IMG/VR virus record: IMGVR_UViG_3300035498_000944
Source: a virus
Taxonomy: Duplodnaviria > Heunggongvirae > Uroviricota > Caudoviricetes
DNA: 64,000 nt
Direction: 5' to 3' (one strand)
Below the pieces are notes generated by a model. It searched no databases. It had not been told where the DNA came from and saw only the letters and a program-made list of their open reading frames with translations. The position numbers were made by a program, and so were the translations under genes. Positions 19,382 through 64,000 of the stretch are shown here, piece after piece. Numbering within the stretch: the first letter of the stretch is position 1; each line of letters begins with the position of its first letter.

Positions 19382-19401
19382 CTTCCTAACAACTCCTTCA
19401 T

Positions 19402-19518: not shown

Positions 19519-19591
19519 ATAACCATATAGTATCTTCATTTTGTCTCATGTTTTCTCCTTTACTCATTTTAATGACTCTACTAAGCTAATA

Positions 19592-20458: not shown

Positions 20459-20478
20459 TTAAAACAACTCCTTTTCAA

Positions 20479-21885: not shown

Positions 21886-21905
21886 TCTAAAACAACTCCT
21901 TTCTT

Positions 21906-22550: not shown

Positions 22551-22580
22551 TCTGTATCAACTCCATTATGTATATAATTA

Positions 22581-24592: not shown

Positions 24593-24612
24593 AAGGAATC
24601 TCCTTTCTTATT

Positions 24613-25335: not shown

Positions 25336-26447
25336 GACTTTTTAGCACCTCCCGGATCCTTAGATTTTGAACGGAAGGGTTTATAATATAAATAGTATAT
25401 AACAACTGCGATTATAGAGAATACTGCCAAACATAAAGCAGACTTCCAATCAATTGCAAATCCAGCACACAAGTAGTAGATGTATCCTACTGGTATATAA
25501 CAAAGTGTTGCTATTGCTACTGTTCTAAAAACCTTTGTTGGACTTATAGGAGTCTCACCTGCGATACAGCCAGATTGACCATTCATATAAAACTTATAAG
25601 TCTTACCATCTACGTTACAACTGAATATGTATAATGGGTAATAGATTAAGTTTATTTGATTGTTTCGTTTTATAACAGCATCTGCTTTTATGTTAGCAAC
25701 TTTATAACCCTGTATACGTTGTGAGAAATAATCTACGACGAACCTTTCATTTATAGTATCAGCAACATGCTTTACTTGGCGATTATCATAATCATACCGC
25801 TTAGATCTTGTACCAGATAAAACACATGGATCAAAGTTAGTAATGTTATCATTATTAAATGGAGTTATAGCTTCCATATAATCATCATCTAATTCTTCCA
25901 TACCATCAGCAGGAATATAATTAGTTATAACATTACCAATAACTTCAGCATCAAAATGTTTTATTTCAGTTATTATATAATCACCTGAAGAATGTTTTGT
26001 AGTAGTCGTAACATCAAATAACATACTTCCACTATTTTCATAATCAAAACACCAAAATGGCATAAGATATTTATTAGTCTTTGTTATATGTATAGATTTT
26101 CTTAATTCATTTGATACAAGTGGTCTAGTTTTTAGCCAGGCTTTAAACTTCTTTTCTGCTTCTTTATCATCAAATTCAAAGGGAGCAATAAAATCAGGAG
26201 TTTGCATTGAATCTAGAACATCTGTATGTATAACCGATCTTTCACATGCTTCACAAAATCCAGATAAGATATTACCATGTGAATCAATAGGAGAACCACA
26301 ACTTATACAAAGCTGTGATTCTCCAGTATCTTTAGGCTCAATATCCAACAAACTGAAGTGTGAATTACATGAAGTACAGATCATGTCATCTGTTTGTTTC
26401 ACATAAATTAATTCTCCACCACAACTGGGACATTGATAGCTTAGCAT
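25332..26447 (-). CDS. double zinc-ribbon membrane protein (YdjG-like)
   Basis: Two zinc ribbons (CPSCGG...CTSCNSHF and CISCGSP...CEACERS) and two C-terminal TM helices. Start and stop are coupled to the flanking genes. Confidence 0.5.
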   Translation of the reverse strand: MLSYQCPSCGGELIYVKQTDDMICTSCNSHFSLLDIEPKDTGESQLCISCGSPIDSHGNILSGFCEACERSVIHTDVLDSMQTPDFIAPFEFDDKEAEKKFKAWLKTRPLVSNELRKSIHITKTNKYLMPFWCFDYENSGSMLFDVTTTTKHSSGDYIITEIKHFDAEVIGNVITNYIPADGMEELDDDYMEAITPFNNDNITNFDPCVLSGTRSKRYDYDNRQVKHVADTINERFVVDYFSQRIQGYKVANIKADAVIKRNNQINLIYYPLYIFSCNVDGKTYKFYMNGQSGCIAGETPISPTKVFRTVAIATLCYIPVGYIYYLCAGFAIDWKSALCLAVFSIIAVVIYYLYYKPFRSKSKDPGGAKKS

Positions 26448-26449
26448 AG

Positions 26450-27130
26450 TTATTTACCTGCTTTCATAGCTGCAAGCTCTGCTTCTATATCATCAGCATC
26501 ACTTGAGGCTTCACTGTCATACTTAGCTATCAATTCTGCAGTATCATCAATACGAGATGTGCTAAGTTCAGCCATAGCATTAGCTCTATCTATCATATTG
26601 TTTGCCCGTTCTTCTATTCTATCAAAGGCACCTATAGATGTTGATGCACCTGAAAGAGAAGAACCTATATTATTAATTTTCTCCTGTGTCTTAGCAACAG
26701 CTATCTTAGCCTTTATTTCCTGTCTACGGCTATTTAAATTGGATATATCTTTTACAAGCTTATCATGCATTTGACGCATCTGTTCTGCTTTTGCTTTAGC
26801 ACTTTCATGTACAGCCTTAGCAGATTCAATTCTTTTGTTAGTTTCATTCTTAAGTGCAAGAAATCTTTTTGCATCGTCATCATTGCCAGCATCAACAGCT
26901 TTCTGAGCATAATCTTTATATTTATTTGCTTCAGCTTCAAGAGCTTCAACATCTCTTCTTGTTCTCTGCTCTTCTGCCATTATAGCTGCTGTTTCAGCCT
27001 TCACATTACCAAGATCTTTCTCAAGATTTCTCATTACCTGATCAATCATTTTAGAAGGATCTTCTGCCTTGTCAAGCAAAGCATTTATATTACTTTCCAT
27101 AATGTCTTTAAAACGTGTTAAAATACTCAT
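26450..27130 (-). CDS. pspA: PspA/IM30 family protein (phage-shock protein A / LiaH-like)
   Basis: 226-aa coiled coil. MSILTRFKDIMESNINALLDKAEDPSKMIDQVMRNLEKDL is a typical PspA/Vipp1 N-terminus. Confidence 0.75.
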   Translation of the reverse strand: MSILTRFKDIMESNINALLDKAEDPSKMIDQVMRNLEKDLGNVKAETAAIMAEEQRTRRDVEALEAEANKYKDYAQKAVDAGNDDDAKRFLALKNETNKRIESAKAVHESAKAKAEQMRQMHDKLVKDISNLNSRRQEIKAKIAVAKTQEKINNIGSSLSGASTSIGAFDRIEERANNMIDRANAMAELSTSRIDDTAELIAKYDSEASSDADDIEAELAAMKAGK

Positions 27131-27149
27131 TTAAATAGCCTCCCTTTAT

Positions 27150-27626
27150 TTATAGAATATGTCTTATCTGCATCAAAGCCTTACCTAAAAGATTCTGACC
27201 GCTCCATCTTTCAGGATAAAATCTGTTAGGGCTTGACATAGAAAGTCCTATACCCCATATTTTGTCATGTACAGCACATTCAGCTAGTATAGCATTTCCG
27301 GTGTTTTTCAACATTTGACAAAGTTCTGGGTTTTGTTTAAACTTAAAATAATTACCTCTTAACACGACCTGAAATCTTTTATCAGACCATGTCTTCTCAT
27401 CATAGTGAACAACTTTTCTACCAAGTGCTTTTATAGCTTTTACATTGTTGCTTTCTAAAATTCTATTGGCTATGAATTGATCATTAAAGGTTATAGCTTT
27501 CTGATACATCATGTACTGCTCAACAGAATTAAAAGTAATTCCATCTGCAGTAAAATTGGATTTATACCAATTACTTAAAAAGCCATTTGGTTCATCTGGA
27601 TTATGAAAACAAATTACATTACTCAT
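27150..27626 (-). CDS. NADAR-domain (YbiA-like) ADP-ribose-processing N-glycosidase
   Basis: GFLSNWY...F.SVEQYMMYQKA...W...R...V..GN..KF.QNPEL...L..TG...L.E.....D.IWGIG matches NADAR/DUF1768 conserved blocks. Confidence 0.7.
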   Translation of the reverse strand: MSNVICFHNPDEPNGFLSNWYKSNFTADGITFNSVEQYMMYQKAITFNDQFIANRILESNNVKAIKALGRKVVHYDEKTWSDKRFQVVLRGNYFKFKQNPELCQMLKNTGNAILAECAVHDKIWGIGLSMSSPNRFYPERWSGQNLLGKALMQIRHIL

Positions 27627-28482
27627 TAGAAACTATCCTTTCCTCTATAAAGTTTGATAGATAATCATATGCATTAGACAATGCTATGTCATAGGATATA
27701 TTATTATCTATATAGTTAGTTAAACGATCATACAGTATTTTCTGCAGATCATATAAATCGTTAATATATTTATCTGAAACGTCATTGGTAAAATTACAAC
27801 ACAAATCATAGACTGTATCATATAAGAATTTGTCAGGTTGATATTTGTATAGATTTGCTACAGAAGTTGGTAAAGTGCTACATATAGAATCTGTTGGGTA
27901 AAATATATCGTTAAGAATAAGGCATAATCCTTCATTACGGAACGATGTATTATCTTTAGGAACATATGTCATTGATAAAGAATGATTATTATAAGATTCA
28001 TTTATGTCATTATAAATTGCTCTACCAATATCGCTACCTTTAAAGAACATGATACATATGCAATCATTCCATGTAGCAAACAGTTCTTTATGTGCCTCTA
28101 CTTTATCATTATAAGTTCTACTTAACGCTGGTTCTTTTAGGAGTTTTATAATACTTCGTTCTGATATGGAGTTTGAATTATTTAATAAATCATACAAATC
28201 CTCAATGTACTCTCCTGAATGTTTAGGATATATAGCTATTATATTATAATCCCCTGATTCCATACAGCAACTTTCAGGTACAGAAGAATTATCAATATGA
28301 GCAGACATTAACAACATATTAACTTTGTCATTATTTACATAATAATCAGAGCCTATGTTTAAATTCTTTAACAACTTTTGAGTTACCTCTGGTTCAATAT
28401 CATCAGAAGAGCCAAAGTTTAAACCAACATATTGACCTGTGTTATCATTCCATAAAATCTCTTTTCCTTTTAATCCGAACAT
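27619..28482 (-). CDS. hypothetical protein
   Basis: ORF of 287 aa. Confidence 0.4.
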   Translation of the reverse strand: MFGLKGKEILWNDNTGQYVGLNFGSSDDIEPEVTQKLLKNLNIGSDYYVNNDKVNMLLMSAHIDNSSVPESCCMESGDYNIIAIYPKHSGEYIEDLYDLLNNSNSISERSIIKLLKEPALSRTYNDKVEAHKELFATWNDCICIMFFKGSDIGRAIYNDINESYNNHSLSMTYVPKDNTSFRNEGLCLILNDIFYPTDSICSTLPTSVANLYKYQPDKFLYDTVYDLCCNFTNDVSDKYINDLYDLQKILYDRLTNYIDNNISYDIALSNAYDYLSNFIEERIVSNE

Positions 28483-29133
28483 TTACTTATCAACTCCTGT
28501 CTCAATTTCTATTTCTGTTGTCTTATGTGAAATTCCAAATACTTTTCTGATAGCCACTATCAATATAATTAACCAGCAAATACCCATAAAAATATATTGA
28601 TCTCTAGCACGTGCTAACTCTTTATTATACACATCATCTGGAGTGTAACCAATATACAAATAATGAACCTTTTCAGAATCTGACTTATTATAATTCATAA
28701 AAGTACAAGGAGTACCTGAATAAATTGTATAAGTCTTAGTTGTGTCATCTGAAATCCATTTAAGTTTAGAAGTATAATCTCCAACTATATCTAGCACATC
28801 CCAGTTTGGTTTATATCCACTAAAACTTGCATTGGTTCCAGGAGTTACTTCTCTACCAACTTCCATGTCATTATAGCTATAATGACCCTTTGTAAAAGTA
28901 TGATACTCTACATCTATTGTATAGGCTATATTATCAGAACTTTCTGCTGTGAAATAGCCAACACTCTCATCACTTGCACTATATAGGTAACCATTAGCCT
29001 CCACATTATCACACAACGTTCTTATGTGATCTATATTAGTCTGTATCCTTAAATGTATCTTATAAGAGAATAATAACAGCCATGCAAGTGCTACTATAAT
29101 TACTGCACGTTTTGTACCTATAGAGGATTTCAC
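28483..29133 (-). CDS. membrane-anchored protein (paralog A of a duplicated pair)
   Basis: N- and C-terminal TM helices. Shares VTPGTNASFSGYKPNWD and TPCTF blocks with 29173..29805. Confidence 0.45.
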   Translation of the reverse strand: MKSSIGTKRAVIIVALAWLLLFSYKIHLRIQTNIDHIRTLCDNVEANGYLYSASDESVGYFTAESSDNIAYTIDVEYHTFTKGHYSYNDMEVGREVTPGTNASFSGYKPNWDVLDIVGDYTSKLKWISDDTTKTYTIYSGTPCTFMNYNKSDSEKVHYLYIGYTPDDVYNKELARARDQYIFMGICWLIILIVAIRKVFGISHKTTEIEIETGVDK

Positions 29134-29172
29134 TGAATAAGAACCTCCTGCTCACAGAACTTTATAGAGGAT

Positions 29173-29805
29173 TTAATCCACATTTTCTGTTTTAGATTTG
29201 TCACGTAAATTAGCAATTAATGCAAGGAAATCTATTATTGCAAATATAGATAAGACAATCTCAATAAAAAGACATCCTTTATTTATATCACTTGATATAG
29301 TATTGTGTACAGTGTCAGGATCATTGTTTATGTAGATTCTATGCAGATTATAGTCAGGAGAACTATAATAAACAAATACACAAGGAGTATCATTATTTAT
29401 AGTATAAGTAACTTCCTTAGTTCCTGCAAGTGTGTTGTTACTAACTGCAGAATCTCCATAGAAATCTAACGAATTAAAATCAGGTATAAACCCATCAAAA
29501 CTAGCATTAGTTCCTGGCATTATATCTCTGTAGGATTCTGTATAATCTATACTATTTCTGTTAAAATAGCGGTCATAATATAAAGTTATGGAGTAGGTTG
29601 TATTAGCATCACTTGTGGATTTAAAATAACCCACTCCATTCTCATTAGGATCAAAATTATCTCCATCAAGTACCACAGCATTAAATAGGTTATTCACAAT
29701 GTCTAATCTCTCATTCTTCATATTTTCCATATAGACGAGACCTCTCATCAATAATAGAAGTACAACTGCTGATATGGTACACTTAATCCACTTAGTAGAT
29801 TTCAT
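29173..29805 (-). CDS. membrane-anchored protein (paralog B)
   Basis: IMPGTNASFDGFIPDFN and TPCVF blocks, with the same topology as paralog A. Confidence 0.45.
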   Translation of the reverse strand: MKSTKWIKCTISAVVLLLLMRGLVYMENMKNERLDIVNNLFNAVVLDGDNFDPNENGVGYFKSTSDANTTYSITLYYDRYFNRNSIDYTESYRDIMPGTNASFDGFIPDFNSLDFYGDSAVSNNTLAGTKEVTYTINNDTPCVFVYYSSPDYNLHRIYINNDPDTVHNTISSDINKGCLFIEIVLSIFAIIDFLALIANLRDKSKTENVD

Positions 29806-29820
29806 TTAACTTAGTGCCTC

Positions 29821-30570
29821 CTAAATATAAAGTTCTTTTGTCATTACTTCTGAAAAAGCTATATGATTCACAGATGATTTGTTTGGTATAGTGTATACTG
29901 CAATAGGACAGTAGATATACTCTTTGAATAATCTAGCTACAGTGTAGGGGTCCTGCTTAAATATACCACAACCAAATGCACCTAGAATTGCTACATCAAT
30001 CTTCTGATCGATGATCACATTAGATATATGCTTTATTCTTGATTCAAGAGCTTTTAAATTATCTTCATAGGAAATACCCTCTTTATAGGCATAACGCCAA
30101 TTAGGGGCTGCACAGGTTAAAACATCACACTTTACAATTCCATCTTCTTGTGGAAATATTATATCTGGAGTATAAACTAATCTATCTTCATATAAAGCAT
30201 TTTGCTGCATAGCTTTATTTTCTTTATAGTACAGGGGACATCTTGATAAAACATTGTACAAAGTAGATGCATGACATAAAGATTCCTCTTGTGTTGTTCT
30301 ACCCTTTAAAAATCCACCACCTGGATGTTTAAAAGATGCAAAGTTTAGTATGGCTTTCTTTCCATTTTTGTATCTTAGCATAGCAGATACAGAATCTTTA
30401 TCATCAAGAATAGTAAACTGTCTCTCTGGTAATTTTGATTTTCTCATATATCCAGTAGGATAAATTAGGGATCTTTCTACTGAAGACTTAATTTCTTCAC
30501 TGAAGTCTTTATCCATCTGTGCAACATGTTCATAAGCTTTCTTTACAAATGATTCTCTTTTTGAATCCAA
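29821..30570 (-). CDS. bacterial-type PARG-like macrodomain protein (DUF2263/TIGR02452-like)
   Basis: ILNFASFKHPGGGFLKGRTTQEESLCHASTLY matches the LNFA..PGGG....AQEE.LCR.S.L signature of microbial poly(ADP-ribose) glycohydrolase-like macrodomains. Confidence 0.55.
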   Translation of the reverse strand: MDSKRESFVKKAYEHVAQMDKDFSEEIKSSVERSLIYPTGYMRKSKLPERQFTILDDKDSVSAMLRYKNGKKAILNFASFKHPGGGFLKGRTTQEESLCHASTLYNVLSRCPLYYKENKAMQQNALYEDRLVYTPDIIFPQEDGIVKCDVLTCAAPNWRYAYKEGISYEDNLKALESRIKHISNVIIDQKIDVAILGAFGCGIFKQDPYTVARLFKEYIYCPIAVYTIPNKSSVNHIAFSEVMTKELYI

Positions 30571-32689: not shown

Positions 32690-32711
32690 CTTCTCTTCTT
32701 ATTTTATATAG

Positions 32712-32792
32712 TGTACCTGATGGGATTCGAACCCACACGCCTATTAGCATTGGAACCTAAATCCAACGTGTCTACCATTCCACCACAGGTAC
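32712..32792 (-). tRNA. tRNA-Leu (anticodon UAG), type II with long variable arm
   Basis: Reverse complement reads GTACCTGTGGTGGAATGGTAGACACGTTGGATTTAGGTTCCAATGCTAATAGGCGTGTGGGTTCGAATCCCATCAGGTACA. 7-bp acceptor stem, U8, anticodon stem TTGGA/TCCAA with loop TTTAGGT, 13-nt variable arm, T-loop TTCGAAT. Confidence 0.75.
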
Positions 32793-34949: not shown

Positions 34950-35795
34950 TTATTTCTCTTCTTTCATTATATATGGCAGGTTGAGTGTTATTTTGTCTGA
35001 GATTTTTATAATTTTTGTAGAACGCCATATATACTTATCATAATCTGTAGATGAACACTTAAGACTATTAAACGTATACCAATCCTTAAAATTGTAATAC
35101 TCTAAAAAGTCATCACTTTTAAGAAAATATGCTGAACTGTAACCGTTTACTTCAGCATTGGCTATATCACTTGTAAGGTCTATGTTGTACCATTTGCCAT
35201 CTAACTGAACTGTATTCCAAATATGATTCATAGAATCACTCATGGCAGCAGAATTATTTATTCCAAGGTTGTTCAAAATATAACCATAAGCATATGTAAT
35301 ACCCTCGCATACAACAGATTTGTTAACTAAAGCATTATACATATCATGATTCTGATAGGAGTAATCATATTTTATATTATAAACGAACCAATCATGGACA
35401 TATAGGAGTTTCTGATAGTCTGTAGTATATTTATTAGCACCATTGATAATCTCTAAAGCTACATCATTCAACTCTTTTATTTTAGAAGGTAATTCATCCT
35501 TATCAACAGTATACTTAAAATCTATAGATTTTAATATTCCATAATCAGGATAACAAACACCACTAACCTGCTTGTCAACATAAAAATATTTAGGTTGACC
35601 AAACAGTAGTTTTGTAGCTAAATTACCAATGTCTTCAGTAGGAACTTTATATTGAGAAATATCTACACTAGGTAAGTAATTCTCAACACCAAGTCTCAAT
35701 GTATTTAGCACAGCTTGTTCGTCATATGCAAAAACATTATTAACACAACAAGCTATGCTAATTACTACTGAAATTATGCACTTTAATAATTTCAT
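34950..35795 (-). CDS. secreted transglutaminase-like cysteine-protease-fold protein
   Basis: Signal peptide, and the Cys-His-Asp arrangement VCEGITYAYGYILNNLGI...NHIWNTVQLDGKWYNIDLT typical of the transglutaminase-like core. Confidence 0.5.
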   Translation of the reverse strand: MKLLKCIISVVISIACCVNNVFAYDEQAVLNTLRLGVENYLPSVDISQYKVPTEDIGNLATKLLFGQPKYFYVDKQVSGVCYPDYGILKSIDFKYTVDKDELPSKIKELNDVALEIINGANKYTTDYQKLLYVHDWFVYNIKYDYSYQNHDMYNALVNKSVVCEGITYAYGYILNNLGINNSAAMSDSMNHIWNTVQLDGKWYNIDLTSDIANAEVNGYSSAYFLKSDDFLEYYNFKDWYTFNSLKCSSTDYDKYIWRSTKIIKISDKITLNLPYIMKEEK

Positions 35796-36590: not shown

Positions 36591-39500
36591 TTATGAAATC
36601 TTTAACTCACTTACCATAACTTTAGTTTCATCAATAGGACTTTGATAAATCTTAAATTTGAAAGTTGAGTTATCTTTATAAAGCAATGCCATTCTCGCAA
36701 TATCCGGATCCTGAGACAACTTAGTACACTTACCTGTTTCACAAAGTGCATAAGATGTGTTTTCATCTGACTGGGCACAAATCCTATTACCTATGAATGG
36801 TAAGAAGGAGTTAAATGCTTTAGCAAGCTTAGCAACAATTATAAAATGAATACCTAAACTTGCACACTTTTGAAGCATGTCTTTAAATTTATCAGTCGTA
36901 TTCCAATCTTCACCTACACCTATACCTACAAGTTTGTCCCACATCAATCCAAATACAAAGATTGGTGTATTTGTTTTACTTGGATCTTCGGTTCTAGCAT
37001 TCATTTCCTCTTCAACAAATGCTAAAAGATCATCAGCAGGATTTGGACTTATGTATTTCTGATATTCCGGTTTTACACGTTTTGTTAAGTCTAACAGATC
37101 AGCTAACTCTGGGTCTGGACATGATACAATAAATTCAATATTGTGTGACTCACAACCGTATAAAAATGTATTAGCTAGATTAAATCTATCATCTCGGTTA
37201 TTACCACAAATCATGACATGTTCACCATCAGCTTTCTGTAAGATAACATGCAATGGAATTTTATCTTCACTAAAGTAGGTACGTTCACCTACAAGTATAA
37301 GTGTATTTAGTTTCTGTACTTCAGTTCTAGCATACCAAGCAGTTGTATCTGTCAATGGATGCTTACGCTTTTCATCATAGAAAAGTGCACCATATTCAAT
37401 GTGACCTTTAACCTTTTCACCTTTAAAGTTGGTCCAAACATCTTCTTTAGTCTTTCTAGCTAATTTAGCTAAATATTCCTTAATGTAATCGTTAGGAGCA
37501 AATGGTATTACATATCTGTGATTAGAGGTTAATTTACCCTTATCACAGTTAGTGTAGATAGCACCTCTACCTCTAAGTTTTTCATATGCAGCTGGGTTAC
37601 CAAGCACATCATCTGATACATCTTTAGAACATCTAAGACAAGCTCTCAACATGAACTGATCCAAAATATCTTGTGACATTGTACCTTTCATAGACTGAGA
37701 TGTAAACCACAAATGACAACCTGCGAAACGAGCAAGCTTTGATATAGAAGTAATCTGTATCTTGATCTGATCTACTATTCTGTCCTCTACTTCGGTAAAC
37801 ATAACCTGGAACTCATCACAAAGAATTATAAGACGAGGCATTATAGACTTGCCATCAGCAATCATCCTTTGTTTCAAATCCCATTTTGTTTTCTCCTTTC
37901 CAGACATATTATTAACATCCTTAGGCTGGAAAGTTATAGTACTGTTCCAGTCGGCTATTGACTGGAACTGATATATACCCAATTCTGACTGACGCCTACG
38001 CATTTCACGAAGAGCATATTCAAATACAGAAAGAGCATATTCACCATCTGTTGTACCTGCAATGATTCTTGCATGAGGTATAATAGATGGAGGTGTTACA
38101 TTAGGATTGGATTTATCTGTATACATACCAAACTCAACGTTCTTGAAGTCAATCATTATCAATGACAATTCTTCAGGTGAGTACATATGTAAAAGATTAG
38201 CCAATACTTGGTTTATGGTAGCAGATTTACCGGCACCTGTCTCACCACACATTAGACAATGAACAGGCTTAACGCCATCTGAACCAAACCACTCTGGATT
38301 GTTATCACTTCTGTCACCTTCAAAGAATCCAAAATGTAATTCAATACCGGGTGCGGAAGAATAAGTCCATATTTTATTATCAGGTATGAATACTGTCCTA
38401 TATTCTTCCTCATACCAAATAATGTCAGGTTTACGCTTACGCATTGTTAATTCAAATTCTTTAACTGCATTTTGTACTGTATAAGTATCAGCAGTCAGAC
38501 GTTGTTCAAAAGTACTTGTTTTATATAGTGGTATTGATGTGCCATCATTTACAATGGCAACATCATCACTCTTTATAACAATAGGGAAATCTAAAAGGAC
38601 TGGAATATCTGGTGGAATCTTACCTTCTTTATCAGTGAAGTTAGACTCATCAGCATGCAGTAACCATATCCAAACACCCATATCTGTAGAGTATTTTTTG
38701 AACTCTTGGAATACCTTATTAGAAGCCAAACCAGATGATGATAATATAATAACAAGAGTATACTCAAGTGTTGTTTTATTTTCATTTGAGTTATCTTCAT
38801 TATACTTATTAAAGGATTTATTGCCTATAACCATCATATTTGATTTAGCTTTCTCATATAATTGCTCAAGCACTTTTGTATAATCTGTTGTAACAACACG
38901 GATATATTTTTGAGTATCTTTATTTAAAAATTCACTCAAATCCTTACCTAGACCTTCAGGATCAATGATAGTCACATCAAGAAAGTTTTCTCGTACGTTA
39001 GCTAACATAGAACATAAGAATAACCTTATCTGATCTAATCTATCTGATCTATCTGGTAAATCATGCCACTGGAATAATATATTCTTGTAAGGAAGAGTTA
39101 CTCTATTATATCCATATATTAACTCACCTGATCTATCTGTAATCTTTGTTGTAGTAAATGATGTGTCTAAGAAATAATTTATAGTAACTGGTATTCCTGG
39201 ACCACCTAATAGCTTAGCACGATTAAGAAGATCTTGAACTTTTTGCTTTGCTTTAACTTTATCTTTTTCTGACTTCTTTATATCAGACATAAGATCATCA
39301 AAATAAAGGTCGTTTCTAGAAGTTGAATTGTATTTAGCAACTTCCATCATACGGCTATTAAGTTCCTTAGCAACGCCTAAGAAATATTCATTATAGGCTG
39401 AGAACTTTCGCTTATATTCAGCAGTGAATCGCTCATAAAGACCATTAACCTGTGACTTGTACTTTATCATACAAGTTGCATTAGTAGCCTCATTTATGGT

Positions 39501-47776: not shown

Positions 47777-48625
47777 CTACTTTAAATTTTTTCTAAGCTT
47801 CATAAACTTCTCCAAAGTCTTAGTTGCAAGAAGTGCTTCAAATTGAGCAGATGTAAGAATAGGAACTCCACCCTTTAGAGCAGCTTCATATTTCTTATGA
47901 CCTCTCATATCAGAATCTGTTACGAGAAAGTCTGCACTCTGTTTAGCACCTACTTGTTTTAATGTATAATCTTTACCATATTTTGAATTCATTAGAGGAA
48001 TAAAGTTATTTCTATTTGAAACACCACGAATAGATCCTGTTATGCTAACTTCTATAATCTTATTAGAATAATTATATTGTATATTAAAATACTTTTCAAT
48101 ATCCTTAATATACTTAAAATAAAGTTTAGCTACTGTCCATTCTGCATGTGTTAATTTAGCGGGAGTATCCTTAGCTGCAACTTCATCAACTGTTATAGAT
48201 GTACCAACAATCTTTAACCATTCTGTCTTTAAACCTGGTATGAATAAGTAATAAAACAACTTCCAATATTCTATAGTAGGCTCTGATGACATATATTTAA
48301 TGAAGGCGTTATACTTAACATCTTTATAAGGATAATCTGCTATCTTCTCAAGATTGAATATTTCCAACACATTTGAGCACTGTGTATATCGTATCAAGTC
48401 TTTAGCAAATGAAGGACCTAAAGATTTAAATCCCAAGTCCTTAAATATAATATTGGCTCTTTCTGACAAATGTTCAGGACAAGCATTATTATAACATCTC
48501 ACGTGCTTAAGATTATCTGAATATAGAAGTGGGCTTCCACATACACAATACCATTGTAAATCTTTAGCCAACCTCATAGGAACCATATCTGTATTTACTA
48601 AGTTCTCCATAGTAAGCCATGTCAT
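47777..48625 (-). CDS. LigA C-terminal-like protein (Zn-finger plus HhH-like plus BRCT) lacking an adenylation domain
   Basis: CVCGSPL...RCYNNACPEHL matches the NAD-ligase C4 zinc finger, and the C-terminal ITGSIRGVSNRNNFIPLMNSKYGKDYTLKQVGAKQSADFLVTDSDMRGHKKYEAALKGGVPILTSAQFEALL matches a BRCT domain. There is no KxDG motif. Confidence 0.5.
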   Translation of the reverse strand: MTWLTMENLVNTDMVPMRLAKDLQWYCVCGSPLLYSDNLKHVRCYNNACPEHLSERANIIFKDLGFKSLGPSFAKDLIRYTQCSNVLEIFNLEKIADYPYKDVKYNAFIKYMSSEPTIEYWKLFYYLFIPGLKTEWLKIVGTSITVDEVAAKDTPAKLTHAEWTVAKLYFKYIKDIEKYFNIQYNYSNKIIEVSITGSIRGVSNRNNFIPLMNSKYGKDYTLKQVGAKQSADFLVTDSDMRGHKKYEAALKGGVPILTSAQFEALLATKTLEKFMKLRKNLK

Positions 48626-54010: not shown

Positions 54011-55399
54011 TTACTTCCATATCAACCATACTCCCCAATCTTTTATAGCACCACTTGAACTCTGAATGCTACCTCTAAGTCGTGATGCCATATACTGTCT
54101 TGCCCACTCTGGAGATAAGTATTCTTCAAGTAACTTATTTTCTTTATACAAGAACAGATAACCTGATTTATGCATAATAGCTACTCTCTTTGGATTGCCA
54201 GGTTGAGGCTTATATAAATTAGAGACATCAATTAATTTAATAGCTCCACTATGGGACATTAAGTAGCCATCATCTGACCATAGTGGAAGCTCTTTAGGAA
54301 TTAATCCATAATTCATATACATAGAGTACATTTCTTGACTATAAGGAGCATCTGTAAAAGATGTATTGTTGCATGCTAAGATAAACTGCTCCATAGAATT
54401 CAGTTCTACCTTTTTAATCTGGTCTTCTAAATTAAAATCAGCACGAAGATAAGCTGAAAGTGAAGTATTATTTATTATGCTTCTTACACTTGAACTCAAC
54501 AAATTATTAGGCTTAAATGACGCCCACACATTTCTAGATACTAACTCAGAATTAGGGGTTATATAATCTGATACTAGAGTATCTATATAATCCTGATCAT
54601 ATTCTCTTGGATCAATATTTCTTATATCAATATTTAAAGTTATGAGAATGTAGATGAAATCCTGTAAGTCTCTATATGCGATATTATAAGGATCTTGACC
54701 TGACAACCACTTAAGCAAGTACTTCATATTATCATTTTGTTTGTGTATCACTTGAATACATTTACCAGTGGTCTTATTCATATTCCAAATATGATAATCG
54801 CCTATATCACTCCACTGATACTTTTTCTTTCCAAAACCTGAATTCTGCATAGCTGATACACAAGATATTACAGAGTATCCTATTGATTTGCCAAAGTCAT
54901 GTAAGCTCTTCAATAGGACAGGTAATCTTGAACGCATACGTTCTATATCTATAGAATCTAGAATGTGTTCCTCTTCAAGTAATTCACTCTCAGAGATTTC
55001 TTGATCCTCGTCATCTGTTATTACACGGATTTCCTGATATCTCTTCTGAAAAGCTTGCTTTGTATAAAACGCTTTATTATGAGCATAGAAGCTATAAATC
55101 AAATTCTCTAAGTACTTTTGTATAGCACCCTGCTGATTAGGATGTAATATAGGACCACATGGTCTACCTTGATTGTCAAGTTGCTTAGTTGGATTGAAAT
55201 CTGCGCAATCATGTAATATATAATCACAGAATCTATCAAAATCCATTTCATCGCCACGTGTTTTTATAAACTGATACATTTTTTCATAATATCCTGTAAA
55301 TGGAGTTCCCTCTGCAGGTTGGTATTGTGGTGAGATTAATACGCGATATATAACCTTACCTTCAGTAAACACAGATCGTTTAGTTGACTGTAGTATCAT
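54011..55399 (-). CDS. hypothetical protein
   Basis: 462 aa. A weak HD-like H..D motif (ILHDCAD) is not convincing. Confidence 0.4.
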   Translation of the reverse strand: MILQSTKRSVFTEGKVIYRVLISPQYQPAEGTPFTGYYEKMYQFIKTRGDEMDFDRFCDYILHDCADFNPTKQLDNQGRPCGPILHPNQQGAIQKYLENLIYSFYAHNKAFYTKQAFQKRYQEIRVITDDEDQEISESELLEEEHILDSIDIERMRSRLPVLLKSLHDFGKSIGYSVISCVSAMQNSGFGKKKYQWSDIGDYHIWNMNKTTGKCIQVIHKQNDNMKYLLKWLSGQDPYNIAYRDLQDFIYILITLNIDIRNIDPREYDQDYIDTLVSDYITPNSELVSRNVWASFKPNNLLSSSVRSIINNTSLSAYLRADFNLEDQIKKVELNSMEQFILACNNTSFTDAPYSQEMYSMYMNYGLIPKELPLWSDDGYLMSHSGAIKLIDVSNLYKPQPGNPKRVAIMHKSGYLFLYKENKLLEEYLSPEWARQYMASRLRGSIQSSSGAIKDWGVWLIWK

Positions 55400-56393: not shown

Positions 56394-57227
56394 TTACCAG
56401 ATAGGTGTCCCCTCCTCAATAATGAGCCCTTCTGGCCTGCATTTGCGTTGTCGTTCTGCAAAGAGTTCGTCTTCATCTCTGTAGACTCCTCTTGAGTTGT
56501 AGACACTTTCTGTCTCGGAGGAACTTGACGCGGAGGAATTGTTGACTGTTCCACTGGAGCTGCTACTTCCTGGTCTTGGTCTTTCTTGCTTAGAGGATTC
56601 CAAGTCTGAGGTATCTTTCTTGGTATCTTCCTTATTGGATTCGGTATTGGATTCTGTCTTGGTTCCTGTTGACTCTGTGGCTTCTCTTCCTGTACTAGAC
56701 CCAGAGTCAGTATCATTAATGCTGTCGCTAGATTCGTTGCTGCTATTACCACTGCTAGCAGGATCAGCAATATCCCTAGCGATTCTACTGTTAGAATTAT
56801 TATTGCTGTCGTAATTGCTCCTAATAATGCTGGAGTATATATCTTGTTTTCCACAAGCAATCTCAACTTCTCCTCCATTATCACCCACATCCTTTCTATA
56901 GACTATAAAATATACACATAAACTAATTATTACAAGTACATCATCAACATATCCAAGTAAAGATTTTATGAACATTTCTGGAAGAATATCTATAGAGGAG
57001 AATACATAGAATAACGATAATACCAGTGCAGGTATAAATTTATACTTTATGTTAAATCTATGTAGATCTCCAACTATAGAAGAACACTTCTTTGTATTCA
57101 CTTTAGGCTTAGAGGGTTTATGAGCTTTCTTAGATTTCTTATGCTTCTTTTTATTTGTATGCAAAGCTTTACTAGCCTTATCAGCATAATCATCTAATTT
57201 ATTTAGAATATTTTTATCAGTTGACAT
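56394..57227 (-). CDS. DUF1232 (YkvA-like) membrane protein with Ser-rich disordered tail
   Basis: SIDILPEMFIKSLLGYVDDVLVIISLC matches the DUF1232 core. C-terminal S/T/N-rich low complexity. Confidence 0.45.
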   Translation of the reverse strand: MSTDKNILNKLDDYADKASKALHTNKKKHKKSKKAHKPSKPKVNTKKCSSIVGDLHRFNIKYKFIPALVLSLFYVFSSIDILPEMFIKSLLGYVDDVLVIISLCVYFIVYRKDVGDNGGEVEIACGKQDIYSSIIRSNYDSNNNSNSRIARDIADPASSGNSSNESSDSINDTDSGSSTGREATESTGTKTESNTESNKEDTKKDTSDLESSKQERPRPGSSSSSGTVNNSSASSSSETESVYNSRGVYRDEDELFAERQRKCRPEGLIIEEGTPIW

Positions 57228-58557
57228 TTAGAGAGATCACCTCTTGCTTACCTAAAGGTTCTCTAGCTTGTGCGGTTATAACACCACTTGGTGATACCGA
57301 TATAGAGAGTAAAATCAAACCTTGTTGGGCTTCTTTCTCTTCTCTAAAGTTGTATAATAAATCACCAATAAAATAATTGTTTCTAGCCAATCTGTCATTA
57401 CCCTGAACTATTCTCAAAGTTAATTGTCTGGCTCTATTCGGATTTGTTACTAACACATTATTGGATATAGGCAGCTTAGAGCTAGGCTCTATAATTCTTA
57501 ATGTCGTACCATTGGACATCTCGATACCTATACCCTTTGTTATGTCAGATACCATAGTTACATCAAGACCCTGCTCTATAAGATAAGCATAATATGCAGC
57601 ACCCATAGCAACTACAGTATCAGGATTATAGATTGAATCTGTAGTTTCATACTGCTTATAATCTGCTATAATATCCCTTAAGTATGGGTCTCTTGTTGAA
57701 CCACCAACCAATAATAATTTTAATTCAGATAAAGGATAGCCGGAATTTTTGACTACCTTGGACATTATACGAATTGTCTTACCAAAAGTGCTATAAACAA
57801 TAGACCTGTACTCATCTGGCGTAAGCTCAAGTCTATCTACTTCAAAAGCTGGTCTTAATGATTCTGACAATTCTATAATTCCATTTGTATGATTTTGCTG
57901 TATGAATCGTTTTATTATTTCACACTGCTCAATCATAGACCTATCTGTATTATCTTCAAACAAATGACGTTTGTGCTCATACTTATTTAAAAGATATTCA
58001 TAGATAGCTCTGTTTAAATCGTCACCACCAAGTTTAATACCATCAGTGCTCTGTACATCTGATATACCAAAAGATGTATCAATTACAGTAACATCAAATG
58101 TACCTCCACCTAAATCGTACACCACAAACTTTCCGGGTCTACCTTTGCTGAAATACATAGCTGCCGCTGTAGGCTCATTGATTAAAGCCCTTACATTTAA
58201 ACCAGCAGCTTCAGCAGCTTTCTTTGTAGCAGACCTCTGGTCATTGTGGAAATAGGCAGGGACTGTGATTACAACATCTTTACTCTCTGTCATGTATTTA
58301 GAGAGTTCAGAGAGAACACATGAGGATGCGAATACAGAAATCTTTCCTGAACTAGATTCTGAAATATTTATTTTATAAGAAGATACAATATCCTTATTCA
58401 TGTTTATCAGATTAGTTCTTTGTTCCGTACCAACCTCCTGCGTTACCATGTTTACAAAAGATGGAACTAATGGTGACAAGTTTTCGACTGTATCAGTTTC
58501 AGAATTATATTTTGAAACTAATGAGTTTGTTGTACCTAAATCAATACCATAAATCAT
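57217..58557 (-). CDS. Hsp70-family ATPase, truncated (nucleotide-binding domain only; DnaK-like)
   Basis: IYGIDLGTTNSLVS phosphate-1, DLGGGTFDVTVID phosphate-2, LLVGGSTRDPYL adenosine motif. 446 aa, lacking most of the substrate-binding domain. Confidence 0.8.
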   Translation of the reverse strand: MIYGIDLGTTNSLVSKYNSETDTVENLSPLVPSFVNMVTQEVGTEQRTNLINMNKDIVSSYKINISESSSGKISVFASSCVLSELSKYMTESKDVVITVPAYFHNDQRSATKKAAEAAGLNVRALINEPTAAAMYFSKGRPGKFVVYDLGGGTFDVTVIDTSFGISDVQSTDGIKLGGDDLNRAIYEYLLNKYEHKRHLFEDNTDRSMIEQCEIIKRFIQQNHTNGIIELSESLRPAFEVDRLELTPDEYRSIVYSTFGKTIRIMSKVVKNSGYPLSELKLLLVGGSTRDPYLRDIIADYKQYETTDSIYNPDTVVAMGAAYYAYLIEQGLDVTMVSDITKGIGIEMSNGTTLRIIEPSSKLPISNNVLVTNPNRARQLTLRIVQGNDRLARNNYFIGDLLYNFREEKEAQQGLILLSISVSPSGVITAQAREPLGKQEVISLNVN

Positions 58558-58629
58558 AAGTTTAAACTCCTTTCTTTATTCTCATTATATATGACTAGTA
58601 GATTAAATATTTCTCACATTATTTTATTT

Positions 58630-60097: not shown

Positions 60098-61226
60098 TTT
60101 TATTCATCTCCTCCTGTCTTATAAGATCTAGATACTCCTGACTATTATCTCTGTAAATTAATTGCAATTGTCTAGTCATATCCAGATCAATATCTGCAAT
60201 AGCATGTGACCTCATAACAAAAGCCACAGGCGAATCTTTATAAAGATTATTTGACAATATTCGTTCTATATTGTCTATATCCAAGACTGATTGTGTACTA
60301 CCTATAGCAGTCTTTACTGGATATATTTGTAACTGTATACCAAAATATAAAGGAGCATTGGAATATCTATAACCAGTGACAAAACTCTTGTAATAGGGCT
60401 CTGCCCAATTATAAATTCTAAATGCATATTTACTTTCAGATGGTAACTCATTTGGTCTAACAACACATCCATCAGTTAAGTAGCCTAACGTATTCTTAAT
60501 ATCTGAAAGTTTCTTAACAGTATTCATAACATCAAAAGCTGTTGTTAAAAATGTTACTGTATCGAACTTACAACGATATAGAGTATCCATCATTTCAGAC
60601 ATAGTTTTAAACTTAACTGTATCACTATCCATATAGAAAGTCATAACTTTCATGTCCTTAGCAAGTTCTGGTTTTGATAATGCTGTAGCAACTGATGATC
60701 TCTGAGAGACATTGGAATATAATCTTTGTATCTTAGAGAACAAGTCATTTGGGACAACAGCTTCACCATAGACTCTTACTTTTCCTTTTATAGGAATTGT
60801 TTGTGGAAACACTGGTTTAAGAGCACTCGCATCAATAGCATCTGAGGAGCGTCCTCTTGTTAAAATACATATGAGTCTACCATCAAGATAGTCAGCCTGT
60901 ACATTGAACCCATCGGCTTTTACAGAGCAAAATACATTAGACATACTAGATGCTATTTTAGATGCTTCTGTAAGAGTTGTTATACTGGGTATAGATTCAG
61001 ACTTATTTGTGTTTATAACCACATTATGCATCCAGTGGGTTAAATTATACTTCTTGAGTAACTCATATGGACATGTATCTAATGACCAGGAAGTTGCTGC
61101 AAAATCATGTGTCTGTGGATCTTTTAAAAATCTTTGATGTAGTAAAGACCACTCGTAATCTGAAATAAATTCTTGACCTATACTATAAGCCCATCTGGCT
61201 AATATATATTTATCGAAGTCATTCAT
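60075..61226 (-). CDS. hypothetical protein
   Basis: ORF of 383 aa. Confidence 0.4.
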   Translation of the reverse strand: MNDFDKYILARWAYSIGQEFISDYEWSLLHQRFLKDPQTHDFAATSWSLDTCPYELLKKYNLTHWMHNVVINTNKSESIPSITTLTEASKIASSMSNVFCSVKADGFNVQADYLDGRLICILTRGRSSDAIDASALKPVFPQTIPIKGKVRVYGEAVVPNDLFSKIQRLYSNVSQRSSVATALSKPELAKDMKVMTFYMDSDTVKFKTMSEMMDTLYRCKFDTVTFLTTAFDVMNTVKKLSDIKNTLGYLTDGCVVRPNELPSESKYAFRIYNWAEPYYKSFVTGYRYSNAPLYFGIQLQIYPVKTAIGSTQSVLDIDNIERILSNNLYKDSPVAFVMRSHAIADIDLDMTRQLQLIYRDNSQEYLDLIRQEEMNKNVMLNGI

Positions 61227-61707
61227 TTAACTCATCCTTTTCAATTTGGTGTACTAATTTATAGACTTTACGTTTTGTGTCTGTTATTAATGTAGGCACT
61301 TCCAGAGTGTACTTAGTTTTAAAATAATCAGCTGATGTATACAAATCTCTCATATGGAAAGGTATATATGATGAAAACTCTTTGTTAACACAAACAGTTA
61401 TTGCATTCATTTTCCTTTCAAGAAGATTAACAAATCTTACATCATCAACATCATCTATAATGATTGTTTCATAACTCTCTGGTAAAAATGCTAATTTTAC
61501 CTTTATAGAATCGATAAAGAAATTCTTTCTAATAGATAGGATTTTGTCTAATAAAACTTTATGGTCTTCAGCCTTATGACCAGGATACACCCAATCTAAA
61601 ATTGCGTACATACTGATAATGTAGCAGTTAGGAATCTCCTGTGCCATTAATTGAGAGACCAGAGTTTTTCCTTGTTTATGTGCACCACAGATAGCAATTA
61701 TACGCAA
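61219..61707 (-). CDS. P-loop NTPase / small nucleotide kinase-like protein
   Basis: Walker A MRIIAICGAHKQGKT at the N-terminus. Confidence 0.4.
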   Translation of the reverse strand: MRIIAICGAHKQGKTLVSQLMAQEIPNCYIISMYAILDWVYPGHKAEDHKVLLDKILSIRKNFFIDSIKVKLAFLPESYETIIIDDVDDVRFVNLLERKMNAITVCVNKEFSSYIPFHMRDLYTSADYFKTKYTLEVPTLITDTKRKVYKLVHQIEKDELNE

Positions 61708-61710
61708 TTG

Positions 61711-62202
61711 TTAGCCCTCCTTAAACCCGCCTAAGATTATACTGCAAGTTGTTTCTTTAGCACCTTCCCCGGAATCGATATATGCGATTGCTGGAATACT
61801 TATCTTGTTTAAAATAGTTTCTCTCTTTGTTACATTAGATGAAGAAATTTGTTTATTTCTGACACGCACCTGTACTGAAAACTGGGAATCCAATTCTACT
61901 AAAAGGTCTACATAGGGATTCTCTTCTAAGAAATAGTTCTTTATGAAGAGACTGTTATTCATAACAGTAATATTACATGTGTCATATTTTGGATCCTTCA
62001 ATTCTTTTTGTAAGGTTTCTGGCAAATCACCTTTCACCTGGACTGTACTTAATCCTAAGTACACTGCCTTCTCCAACTTATCAGAGATTTCACCTTTATA
62101 CTCTGATAATGTGTTTTCTCTAATATTATAGGAGAAATACAAGTTATCAATTTTTACAATAGTGTCATCATTACTATTTGTAAACACATCGGTTATACGC
62201 AT
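61711..62202 (-). CDS. hypothetical protein
   Basis: ORF of 163 aa. Confidence 0.4.
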   Translation of the reverse strand: MRITDVFTNSNDDTIVKIDNLYFSYNIRENTLSEYKGEISDKLEKAVYLGLSTVQVKGDLPETLQKELKDPKYDTCNITVMNNSLFIKNYFLEENPYVDLLVELDSQFSVQVRVRNKQISSSNVTKRETILNKISIPAIAYIDSGEGAKETTCSIILGGFKEG

Positions 62203-62214
62203 AGTTTGTCCTCC

Positions 62215-63171
62215 TTACTTAAATAGTCTGCTTGGGTCACTATTAACTTTCTGTAAAAATAAAGCAAAGTGACAATAACTGTTTGGTTTTAGATTACCAA
62301 TTTTAGCTCCTTGCTTAATGGACTGATGAGCTTTAACGTCTATGGTATCTAAATGTCCATATAAAGTCTGTATGTTGAATCCATGAGATACAATAACATA
62401 TTTACCTAACTCCTCAGATTCTCCTATTTTACAAACAATACCATTTAGAGCACTGTTCACTTGTGTATTATCTGTAGCAAGAAAATCTATACCCTTATGA
62501 TTTATTAAAGTATCATCTCTTTTTGTTGTACCATACACTGTTGATATTTTAGAGTCTGGCACTGGATAAGCTATCTTACTAGTCTGTCCTATATCATACT
62601 GATTTAGATACTGAGCATATATTTTTAAAGAGCCTTCGTAAGTATTTTTAGATTGATAAAACATATCTTCTGTAATTGTGTCATCAGACTCTATTATAGA
62701 GGCTAATACATATTTATCATAAGCATCTTTCAATGCAGCTGTAGCCTCATTTAATTCATCACGTGCTTTTACATAATCTTCTTCAATACTAAAAATTTCA
62801 TCTATATCTGCATCAGCATTAACAGCAGCTACAAGAAGTTCTTCTAAATCGGATTTCTTTTCTGTTAGAGAATCCACATCTAGAGACTTCTCTGTATTTT
62901 CATATTCAGCATATAAAATAGGAGCAATCTTCTCCTCAGCCACTTTTGAATAATACATATCTTTGTAACTATTGTATGTTACATAAAGGTCTGAGAGAGA
63001 CTCTTTGGTTATGGGATTCTCAGCTTTGCTAGAAATCAATCCATAATCAAAGAGAAGGTCTTCCTCAGTAGAGGCATAGCACATTGTAGTACTTATTAAG
63101 CAAATTGCTAATGCAGAAGTTAAAAATCTTAACTTCAATAGATTACCTCCTTTAAATGAGAGTGTCCTCAT
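62215..63171 (-). CDS. secreted M23-family peptidase (peptidoglycan endopeptidase-like)
   Basis: Signal peptide. C-terminal HKGIDF, YGHLDT and CHFALF blocks match the LytM/M23 HxxxD and HxH zinc sites. Confidence 0.65.
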
Positions 63172-64000
63172 TATTAAGTATATTAATTCTCTCAGACAGG
63201 AATGAAGAGTACTGTGTTCCTGACTTAGGTGCTAAGCCCATCAACAATCTTGAAAATGCAGAATTAAGTTCATCCGTCTTACTGAACAAAACAGCTGAAG
63301 AAAATACCTGCTTGAAGTTTTGGAAAGATAAACCTGATAAGAAGTCATTTCCATATAATGGTGTATCCTTAGTACTAAGAATAGTTGGCTCAAGTTCATA
63401 ATTACAACTGTCCAAATTAGCAACCTCTTGATTAGTTAGAACAGTACCAATTGGAACTTTGCAATTATTTGACTTGTGATTTACAACAATCCATCTTGTC
63501 ATTTCTGACGCCAAAATCTCAGCATGTATAGGTGCAACAGAAGCTTGACTGAAATAAATTGTAAATATAGAATTTACAATATATCTCTGTGCTGTAGTTA
63601 TACCACCATACCTCAATAACTCACCAACATCAAGATTACCCTGAGATAAAGATAAGCCTTCACCTTTGTGCACGTAATCTTTTAAAACAGGATAACCATC
63701 AAGGCGTAACTTTCTATTACTATCACCAATCATAACAATAGTAGAGTTACCATCCTGTTCAGAGAATACCTCACCCTCAGCCCAAGATACAGGATCATAA
63801 TAAGGATTACTTGCTGTAACTTTAGTTAAGTTAATAATATCTTTAATCTTATCAAAGTCAGATGTGATATCAGCCTTAGAAGCTACACCACCCTTTTGGA
63901 AGTTTCTCATGGCTAACTGAGTACCAGGTTCACCAATTGACTGAGCAGCTATGAATCCAATAGGAAGTCCACGTATTGCTCTTCTATGAATAGAAAGATC
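63152..64000 (-). CDS. multisubunit RNA polymerase beta-prime-like subunit, C-terminal part (5'-partial; the gene continues beyond the window end)
   Basis: The reading frame is open upstream of the track's ATG to position 64000. It translates as ...[38 protein letters not shown], matching the bacterial RpoC trigger-loop block [25 protein letters not shown]. Confidence 0.75.

Follow-up and report, generated by a model that had tools for sequence, protein, structure and literature searches.

A deeply diverged, unsplit RNA polymerase beta/beta-prime gene pair, probably of a large Firmicutes-associated mobile genome

Element-borne RNA polymerases and the gene at the window edge

Multisubunit RNA polymerases (RNAPs) encoded by mobile elements are rare, and those that have been studied, of the bacteriophages phiKZ and AR9, are split, lack alpha and are tied to a nucleus-forming or a uracil-DNA lifestyle. 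Each of these enzymes is made up of four or five polypeptides, the break in beta-prime falling after the DPBB domain, and two very divergent RNAP sets are present, one virion and one non-virion, with neither alpha nor omega (PMC7598289). Unsplit RNAPs borne by phages or other elements are also a known kind, the examples being Rhizobium phages RHph_Y65 and TM30 (Kleczkowskaviridae, ~207 kb), Yersinia phage vB_Yru_GN1, Vibrio phages 1.031.O and Va2 and Cobetia phage Carin-5. Here we describe a beta-prime gene that runs off the end of a 64,000-nucleotide (nt) stretch of the IMG/VR virus record IMGVR_UViG_3300035498_000944 (the whole stretch is called the window below), together with the beta gene that accompanies it on matching contigs. 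This deeply diverged beta/beta-prime pair marks a separate lineage, and we consider it likely that the two genes encode the catalytic RNAP core of a large, autonomous, uncultivated mobile genome that is associated with Firmicutes and is not of the phiKZ/AR9 type.

The gene lies on the minus strand, and its upstream side is therefore beyond base 64000. Read from 64000 to 63152, the frame comprises 283 codons, and its sole stop is the terminal one, of TAA type, at 63152-63154. The 252-amino-acid (aa) open reading frame (ORF) listed at 63152-63910 begins at an internal ATG (63908-63910), which is Met31 of the open reading, as a preliminary description of this DNA had stated. That description had also reported that the frame stays open to the window edge and encodes the trigger-loop block, and both points were borne out by translation, by a match of residues 11-173 to Pfam RNA_pol_Rpb1_5 (E=1.8e-17) and by alignment with bacterial beta-prime, in which both trigger-loop arms and the C-terminal G and H blocks were present in the fragment. 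These results confirm that the window-edge ORF is the C-terminal quarter of a genuine multisubunit RNAP beta-prime (Table 1).

To follow the gene beyond the window, we started from P0001, a short protein of 100% identity, whose 90%-identity cluster also holds P0022, labelled beta-prime by its source. Contig L096 (Logan SRR11792607, 10.8 kb) equals window positions 60898-64000 at 100% over 3103 nt and runs 7725 nt past 64000; a JGI contig, L097, aligns to the window at 99.5%. On L096, beta-prime is a single ORF (5194-8574) of 1126 aa (P0022), the last 282 residues of which are identical to the window. No in-frame stop was found just upstream of the fragment, and the continued frame adds further RpoC blocks, the full protein matching Pfam Rpb1_1, Rpb1_2, Rpb1_4 and Rpb1_5 (the last at E=2e-26). 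The active site, on the part of L096 outside the window, reads NADHDGD within GFNADHDGDQMAVH and keeps the three catalytic aspartates; the bridge helix, a second, C-terminal zinc site of four cysteines and a clamp-helix-like LYNNVIRANKVL are kept as well.

Moving 5' to 3' towards beta-prime, L096 carries a beta-like gene, a gene for a membrane protein of the YdjM family and an ORFan of 323 aa. The beta-like gene, which sits 1.6 kb upstream of beta-prime, encodes at least 1180 aa before the contig end cuts it and matches Pfam Rpb2_3, Rpb2_6 and Rpb2_7. On a 77%-identical relative (L111) it is complete, as one ORF of 1205 aa that keeps GDKMAGRHGNKGV and SRMNPGQ; the beta motifs GDKxxGRHGNKG and SRMNxGQ are retained. 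Because beta-prime is one 1126-aa ORF on an identical contig, the apparent fragment is an artefact of the window edge and not a split subunit, as had been supposed. Both beta-prime and beta (~1205 aa) are unsplit, single polypeptides. The expectation of more RNAP fragments elsewhere held for the beta gene, which is nearby but outside the window; within the 64 kb, tblastn found no other beta- or beta-prime-like sequence.

Divergence of the beta-prime family

The protein shares with RpoC of Firmicutes and Thermus its single polypeptide, the beta gene upstream, domains Rpb1_1, Rpb1_2, Rpb1_4 and Rpb1_5, the NADxDGD motif, bridge helix, trigger loop, C-terminal zinc site and clamp helices, and all 60 PDB matches shown were bacterial, the best at E=1e-85. 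It differs from them in the loss of the N-terminal zinc ribbon and of the Pfam Rpb1_3 signature, in a changed trigger loop and in the two genes between beta and beta-prime. The ribbon (CxC...CxxC) was missing in 4 of 4 aligned family members, and no cysteine cluster was present in the first 240 aa, whereas the bacterial beta-primes and the cultivated-phage beta-primes compared in the same alignment keep it. Pfam Rpb1_3 (PF04983) was absent from the related clusters P0023-P0028 but present in the bacterial matches listed below P0028. In the window, Gln takes the place of the trigger-loop His found in bacterial TMRTFHxGG; a homologous locus, L001, keeps His, and a sister clade of high guanine-plus-cytosine (GC) content has Lys at this position and Asp in place of the trigger-loop Arg.

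A full-length search with P0022 returned six more clusters at 540-2011 bits, and every bacterial RpoC scored 301 bits or less. Full-length identities within the family were 29-46% once the P0010/P0011 subclade and L001 were added, as compared to 26-29% to Firmicute RpoC, than which P0022 is about 90 aa shorter, and 26-31% to any bacterial RpoC. A collection of 5.8 billion proteins yielded only about a dozen clusters. The family is small, very rare and sharply set apart from bacterial RpoC.

Scans of IMG/VR and JGI with the window fragment gave no close relatives, and none was among the matches listed from tblastn searches for beta-prime in 50,697 phage records. The matches listed from GTDB were all housekeeping rpoC, with a best identity of 31%, and are uninformative on integrated copies. 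Matches of the fragment to Enterococcus, Listeria and Staphylococcus "phages" and to phrog_25354 were rejected as phage relatives, and the batch was treated as bacterial contamination. Two of these records, L007 (OR844998.1) and L008 (OR846602.1), are wastewater entries labelled Staphylococcus and Enterococcus phages and marked UNVERIFIED_ORG; they carry rpoB-rpoC-rpsG-fusA-tuf and are bacterial chromosome contigs, in contrast to the window family, which has no such ribosomal and elongation-factor neighbourhood. The remaining OR84xxxx "phage" matches are probably bacterial as well, and phrog_25354 and records of this sort probably contaminate phage sets with host RpoC. Matches in PLSDB were mislabelled chromosomes and were likewise rejected, as plasmid relatives.

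The cultivated phages with unsplit RNAP resemble the window family in having a beta-prime of ~1090-1130 aa in one ORF on a non-cellular genome of 128-207 kb, and RHph_Y65 has a large PolA-domain gene nearby. Their identity to the window family is 24-28%, no closer than that of bacterial RpoC. Unlike the window family, these phages keep the N-terminal zinc ribbon, have trigger-loop insertions, infect Proteobacteria and carry recognisable virion genes.

According to the preliminary description, the gene was a split fragment of the kind found in phiKZ-like or AR9/PBS1-like jumbo phages. In common with phiKZ (Chimalliviridae), AR9 and PBS1, the window family has a multisubunit-type core on a large non-cellular genome, with no alpha or omega seen nearby, and beta-prime homology and relatives on contigs longer than 200 kb would agree with such an origin. 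So would the beta-prime of L001 (46-49% identical; 49% to the window fragment), which is divided into 771+354 residues and is the only split one found. However, this split falls after the bridge helix and not after the DPBB domain (PMC7598289), and beta-prime is encoded by one ORF in the lineage of the window itself and in five further members of the family. The phages have two sets; in the stretches examined here, one unsplit set of clear bacterial-type sequence was found, and the window holds no second. Relatives of phiKZ or AR9 were absent from 7 fragment matches and the 25 listed of 44 full-length tblastn matches in the phage records, all of which were mislabelled bacterial contigs or unrelated unsplit phage genes, and the PDB matches shown were without exception to bacterial beta-prime. 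A phiKZ- or AR9-type RNAP fragment is thus highly improbable.

Virus, plasmid-like element or chromosome

The RNAP genes belong to a conserved core of ~35 kb. Six other loci share the order beta, YdjM, small ORF, beta-prime, in part further small ORFs, and M23 peptidase, continuing with a ~160-aa protein, ligase, Hsp70-like protein, ~460-aa protein and PolA (Table 1). By reciprocal BLAST, the collinear core shared with the high-GC clade extends from beta to an FtsK-like gene (window 36591-64000), while window 1-36500 has almost no counterpart there. These relatives have 50-53% GC as compared to 33-35% for the window, and the clade was found in human-gut assemblies as contigs of 142-185 kb. Since the core has been kept across lineages of 33% and 50-53% GC, we infer long vertical descent in a mobile lineage and not a recent capture of host rpoBC. 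The lineage would have retained the core while adapting to hosts of 33% and ~51% GC, some of them in the human gut. Contigs of the relatives measure about 140-210 kb; other than those of 202,269 and 209,529 bp, they range from 137 to 185 kb, OBKG01000029.1 (181,250 bp) being one of them.

Table 1. Locations of the beta-prime gene, the core genes and the intergenic motif, with the related beta-prime clusters and syntenic loci
Feature	Location	Strand	Evidence or remark
Beta-prime, C-terminal part	63152..64000	minus	Last 282 codons and stop; residues 845-1126 of P0022 (1126 aa)
Trigger-loop N-terminal arm, 25-residue peptide	63878..63952	minus	Translation and alignment with bacterial beta-prime
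M23 peptidase, secretion-type N-terminus	62215..63171	minus	Pfam Peptidase_M23 4.2e-19; first core gene downstream of beta-prime
NAD-dependent DNA ligase adenylation-domain protein, 383 aa	60075..61226	minus	PF01653; 38% identity to high-GC orthologue
Hsp70/DnaK-like ATPase, 446 aa, truncated C-terminus	57217..58557	minus	Pfam HSP70 1.3e-58; 41% identity to high-GC clade
Conserved 462-aa protein between Hsp70-like and PolA	54011..55399	minus	Orthologues in L098, L099, L110
Family A DNA polymerase with 3'-5' exonuclease, 1091 aa	50176..53451	minus	Pfam DNA_pol_A 1.8e-49; 35% over 1084 aa to high-GC clade
FtsK/SpoIIIE-like ATPase, 1303 aa, distal core end	36591..40502	minus	Pfam FtsK_SpoIIIE 1.2e-19; PDB FtsK 2e-9
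CATATATAA(T/C), coding strand, 26-121 nt upstream of gene starts	58585-58593, 47763-47771, 34967-34975	minus	
CATATATAA(T/C) in relatives	L111 17957; L099 16655; L110 3408 and 12431; L114 14004		
Beta-prime cluster P0023	Longest contig 202,269 bp		77% identity to P0022
Beta-prime cluster P0024	Longest contig 44,657 bp		42% identity to P0022
Beta-prime cluster P0025	Longest contig 69,088 bp		37% identity to P0022
Beta-prime cluster P0026	Longest contig 4,127 bp		38% identity to P0022
Beta-prime cluster P0027	Longest contig 8,449 bp		33% identity to P0022
Beta-prime cluster P0028	Longest contig 156,395 bp		32% identity to P0022
Syntenic locus L098	209.5-kb contig (209,529 bp, JBANSE010407262.1)		NCBI metagenome
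Syntenic loci L099, L100, L101	Contigs up to 159.7 kb		Logan and ENA
Syntenic locus L110 (IMGVR_UViG_3300023495_000139, 185,025 bp)	185 kb		IMG/VR
Syntenic locus L111 (SRR26717865_309, 202,269 bp)	202 kb		Logan

The M23 gene overlaps the beta-prime stop by 20 nt and holds the same place in L097, L098, L099, L100 and L111. Exact copies of the Hsp70-like gene lie on four other contigs, and the 462-aa protein that follows it had no Pfam or PHROG match. RNase H is also among the core genes, with PolA, the ligase, the Hsp70-like and the FtsK-like proteins. The ligase adenylation protein stands alone; a 282-aa protein encoded 11 kb downstream (47777-48625, minus strand) is, like it, conserved in the high-GC clade. 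By eye, we considered this second protein as the zinc-finger/HhH/BRCT half of a split LigA, for which a PDB sequence search gave no support. The FtsK-like ATPase is 32% identical over 911 aa to its high-GC counterpart and has two transmembrane (TM) helices predicted by a hydropathy scan and, by eye, an N-terminal coiled coil, a topology like that of EssC/EccC. Its gene is always preceded by the same 3-4 genes (366, 200, 202 and 255 aa; window 36591-43530, minus strand), also in L115 (51% GC). DNA translocation, secretion or packaging is a possible function of this block.

The stretches that we examined comprise ~105 kb of the low-GC lineage, including 41 kb upstream on the 77%-identical relative (L111/L113/L114), and ~66 kb of the high-GC lineage. 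In the former lineage, genes for a DnaJ-like protein, an SLH protein, the helicase DnaB and a zinc-ribbon protein of DnaG type lie within the 21 kb that precede the RNAP module on the 202-kb contig. A complete, very divergent Tad-like pilus locus (L113 1-9916, L114 5664-18519) lies 4-14 kb upstream of beta and encodes CpaB-like and TadZ/ParA-like proteins, a fused 670-aa TadB/C-like polytopic protein, six pilin-like proteins and a 430-aa protein; the locus is invisible to Pfam and PHROGs, and its CpaF-like ATPase matched PDB CpaF at E=8.7e-6. No second beta/beta-prime set was seen among the genes called on these 41 kb. The ~66 kb from the RNAP end of the high-GC clade hold, besides the core, a second PolA, RNase H, an exonuclease, a NERD nuclease, a Toprim primase, a triple-SLH protein and NADAR (on L117), and by eye SbcCD-like, UvrD-like, J-domain and sigma-region-4-like proteins. 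In this clade at least 13 independent assemblies end at one point, which is 2 kb away from beta on its upstream side and ~480 nt short of a metA-like (HTS) gene (L100 1-1401, L101 1-1397, L099 2080-4360). The repeat TTTGTCAA(G)CAC(T)TTTTT occurs three times in the terminal 480 nt. L099 is different, in that the core is joined there by a Tn916-like sigma/HTH/xis/int module. At L001, agr genes adjoin the homologue.

A bacterial-type domain order, beta before beta-prime and best outside matches to bacterial RpoC would also be found if the gene were the ordinary housekeeping rpoC of an unusual, fast-evolving bacterium. Against this stand the low identity to any bacterial RpoC (only 26-31%) and the sharp score gap, and ribosomal protein, rRNA and elongation-factor genes were not seen in the ~105 kb around the gene. 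Scans of those window ORFs that reach 100 aa showed no ribosomal genes either, the alignment-mode scans listing the top 25 families. Since no ribosomal genes were seen, and since YdjM and the 323-aa ORFan stand between beta and beta-prime, we conclude that this is not a housekeeping operon. The neighbours are M23 peptidase, ligase, Hsp70-like protein and PolA, all contigs are of 210 kb or less, and the same core occurs at 33% and 51% GC. A housekeeping gene is therefore a most unlikely reading.

The mobile or viral character of the genome is indicated by dense coding on one strand, the share of ORFans, two tRNA genes, its own replisome genes and one family contig in IMG/VR. The window is tiled by 78 non-overlapping ORFs of 60 aa or more, every one of them on the minus strand. 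They cover 95% of the sequence, and the GC skew on the plus strand is steadily negative; GC is 31-35%, and about two thirds of the non-repeat ORFs have no Pfam match. Whether such a genome is a phage or a plasmid-like element we rate as about equal. Of the jumbo-phage genome proposed earlier, a large mobile or virus-like genome stands, with relatives on 202- and 209-kb contigs, and "phage" is a possible reading, no virion gene having been recognised in the stretches examined.

In our view there is close to an even chance that the genome is that of a new tailed phage, large or jumbo, which infects Firmicutes and whose RNAP drives middle or late transcription, as in other phages that encode an RNAP. 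Such a phage would account for the 185-kb family contig in IMG/VR, the tRNA genes, the dense co-directional coding with many ORFans, and a phage-style autonomy that includes two PolA, DnaB, DnaG, ligase and RNase H, with SbcCD-like and UvrD-like proteins by eye. NADAR and PARG-type proteins are candidate counter-defence genes, the at least 13 assemblies that stop at one point near the RNAP module are as a fixed genome end would give, and cultivated phages with unsplit beta-prime exist. However, no matches to major capsid protein, terminase, portal, sheath or tape measure were found in the window or in L113/L114, L116, L117 and L120. For the 57 larger ORFs of the window, Pfam and PHROGs matched neither capsid and terminase nor portal and tail families, the "tail" and "head" PHROG matches all falling on the M23 domain; in L113, L116 and L117 these databases likewise detected no capsid protein, large terminase or portal. 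On a phage, the virion genes would have to be too divergent or to lie in the ~100 kb unseen. The lack of a relative among the matches listed from the 50,697 phage records, the Tad-like pilus, the SLH and secreted surface proteins and the adjoining Tn916-like integrase module also speak against a phage.

These last features would be at home in a non-viral giant extrachromosomal element, megaplasmid-like and with the lifestyle of Inocles or Borgs, that carries its own beta/beta-prime RNAP, replisome and Tad-type pilus; we hold this reading tentatively, as somewhat short of an even chance. It is favoured by the complete Tad-like locus beside the RNAP genes on the 202-kb relative, with its CpaF match (E=8.7e-6), by the FtsK/EssC-like membrane translocase in the conserved core, and by the absence of virion genes from the examined stretches. 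The 36 kb of clade-specific genes in the window are adaptive or surface genes (13 BspA leucine-rich repeat (LRR) proteins, PspA, SPFH, TPM, GNAT, isochorismatase and, by eye, a HipA-like protein), the L001 homologue has agr genes beside it, a Tn916-like insertion is present, and the steady GC skew with co-oriented genes is as in a Firmicute replichore. In contrast, a relaxase, VirB4, Rep or partition system was not recognised either among the Pfam and PHROG matches, the FtsK-like ATPase being the sole candidate for a conjugation component, nothing similar was present in PLSDB, and the tRNAs, NADAR/PARG, full replisome and IMG/VR contig are more phage-like.

Giant extrachromosomal elements (ECEs) of this kind, the Inocles of oral Streptococcus and the Borgs and jumbo ECEs of Methanoperedens, are similar in their size of hundreds of kb, in their many stress and cell-wall genes and in being mostly ORFans. 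Inocles also share the low GC (32%) and, as giant ECEs, are missed by phage and plasmid classifiers. They differ in having Pol III, gyrase and the InoC marker while lacking an RNAP, and the text of the Inocle paper never mentions RNA polymerase; on gene content, we rejected the window element as an Inocle. Beyond this comparison, no sequence relationship to the giant ECEs was found or sought.

On either of the two readings, phage or plasmid-like, the element very likely transcribes itself, judging from the motifs of its RNAP genes. The beta/beta-prime enzyme would transcribe the element's own genes and make it partly independent of the host polymerase. With the clamp helices retained, a sigma-like factor, encoded by the host or by the element, is probably still used, and the loss of the zinc ribbon and of the Rpb1_3 signature, with the altered trigger loop, suggests that promoter, initiation, termination or pausing behaviour may differ from that of the host RNAP. 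It is pure conjecture that YdjM and the 323-aa ORFan could be accessory subunits.

Several observations weigh against an active RNAP on a large autonomous genome. RNAP activity is predicted from motifs, and the trigger-loop His and Arg changes may alter catalysis or proofreading. No alpha or omega gene was seen in the examined stretches, and the only sigma-like candidate is a 209-aa protein on L120 with sigma region 4 recognised by eye. The longest contig on record that carries P0022 itself is 123.5 kb. No virion gene was found in the ~170 kb examined across the family, and a simple lytic phage is further disfavoured by the Tad-like pilus, the SLH-anchored and secreted proteins, the Tn916-like insertion and the stress genes.

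It is possible, though we would put it below an even chance, that these genomes represent a new class of giant, self-sufficient extrachromosomal elements of gut Firmicutes, neither conventional phage nor plasmid. The vertically inherited ~35-kb core of such a class would, again tentatively, comprise the ribbon-less beta/beta-prime, replisome, Hsp70/DnaJ pair and FtsK-like translocase, with a Tad pilus in at least one lineage. To our knowledge, no bacterial element outside the viruses would before then have been known to possess a multisubunit RNAP, and the range of genes known from plasmid-like elements would be widened. The family offers a natural experiment on the dispensable parts of bacterial RNAP (zinc ribbon, Rpb1_3 signature, trigger-loop His), a candidate host-independent transcription system for Firmicutes and a marker gene with which to fish such elements from metagenomes.

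Intergenic motif and accessory genes of the window

The only recurrent intergenic motif other than ribosome-binding sites was CATATATAA(T), which precedes the start codon of the Hsp70-like gene by 26-36 nt in L111, L099/L100 and L110 as well as in the window; a CATATATAAT element lies upstream of the same gene. As a candidate promoter, the motif was rejected for want of enrichment in the window (4 found as compared to 3.3 expected) and is noted here as no more than a lead, and the unusual promoters anticipated in the preliminary description thus found no support. Its position before the Hsp70-like gene is conserved despite GC contents of 33% and 51%, and no other position is conserved.

In the accessory half of the window, 13 tandem paralogues of DUF285/BspA-type LRR proteins (179-542 aa) occupy 8672-23411 on the minus strand. 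They share a ~60-aa N-terminal domain (FEYTYGDDWIQITK...PSYVEGYQVYLPDDC) and, by eye and hydropathy scan, have neither a signal peptide nor a TM helix. They may serve as a set of receptor-binding proteins or adhesins, or have some other role. This repeat array probably breaks assemblies. Next to it, at 23603-30570 (minus strand), lie genes related to membrane stress and ADP-ribose, for SPFH with zinc ribbons, TPM, a zinc-ribbon membrane protein, PspA/IM30, NADAR and microbial PARG, which were assigned gene by gene by eye from the Pfam family list; the cluster may have counter-defence or envelope-stress functions. The window has two SPFH proteins in all, and its further families include GNAT, isochorismatase, RibD_C, transglutaminase-like and glucosaminidase. 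A homology search with five ORFs from the low end of the window, joined as one chimeric query, returned nothing.

A 366-aa protein at 3686-4786 (minus strand) resembles, by eye, the C-terminus of HipA-type kinases (EDRHMNNFGF). An 84-aa SpoIIID-like helix-turn-helix regulator (6990-7244, minus strand; PDB 2l0k, E=6.5e-6) hints at a spore-forming Firmicute as the host. Two tRNA genes on the minus strand, Val(AAC) at 6663-6735 and Leu(TAG) at 32711-32792, were confirmed with Rfam, and AAC is a seemingly unusual anticodon for a bacterial tRNA-Val gene.

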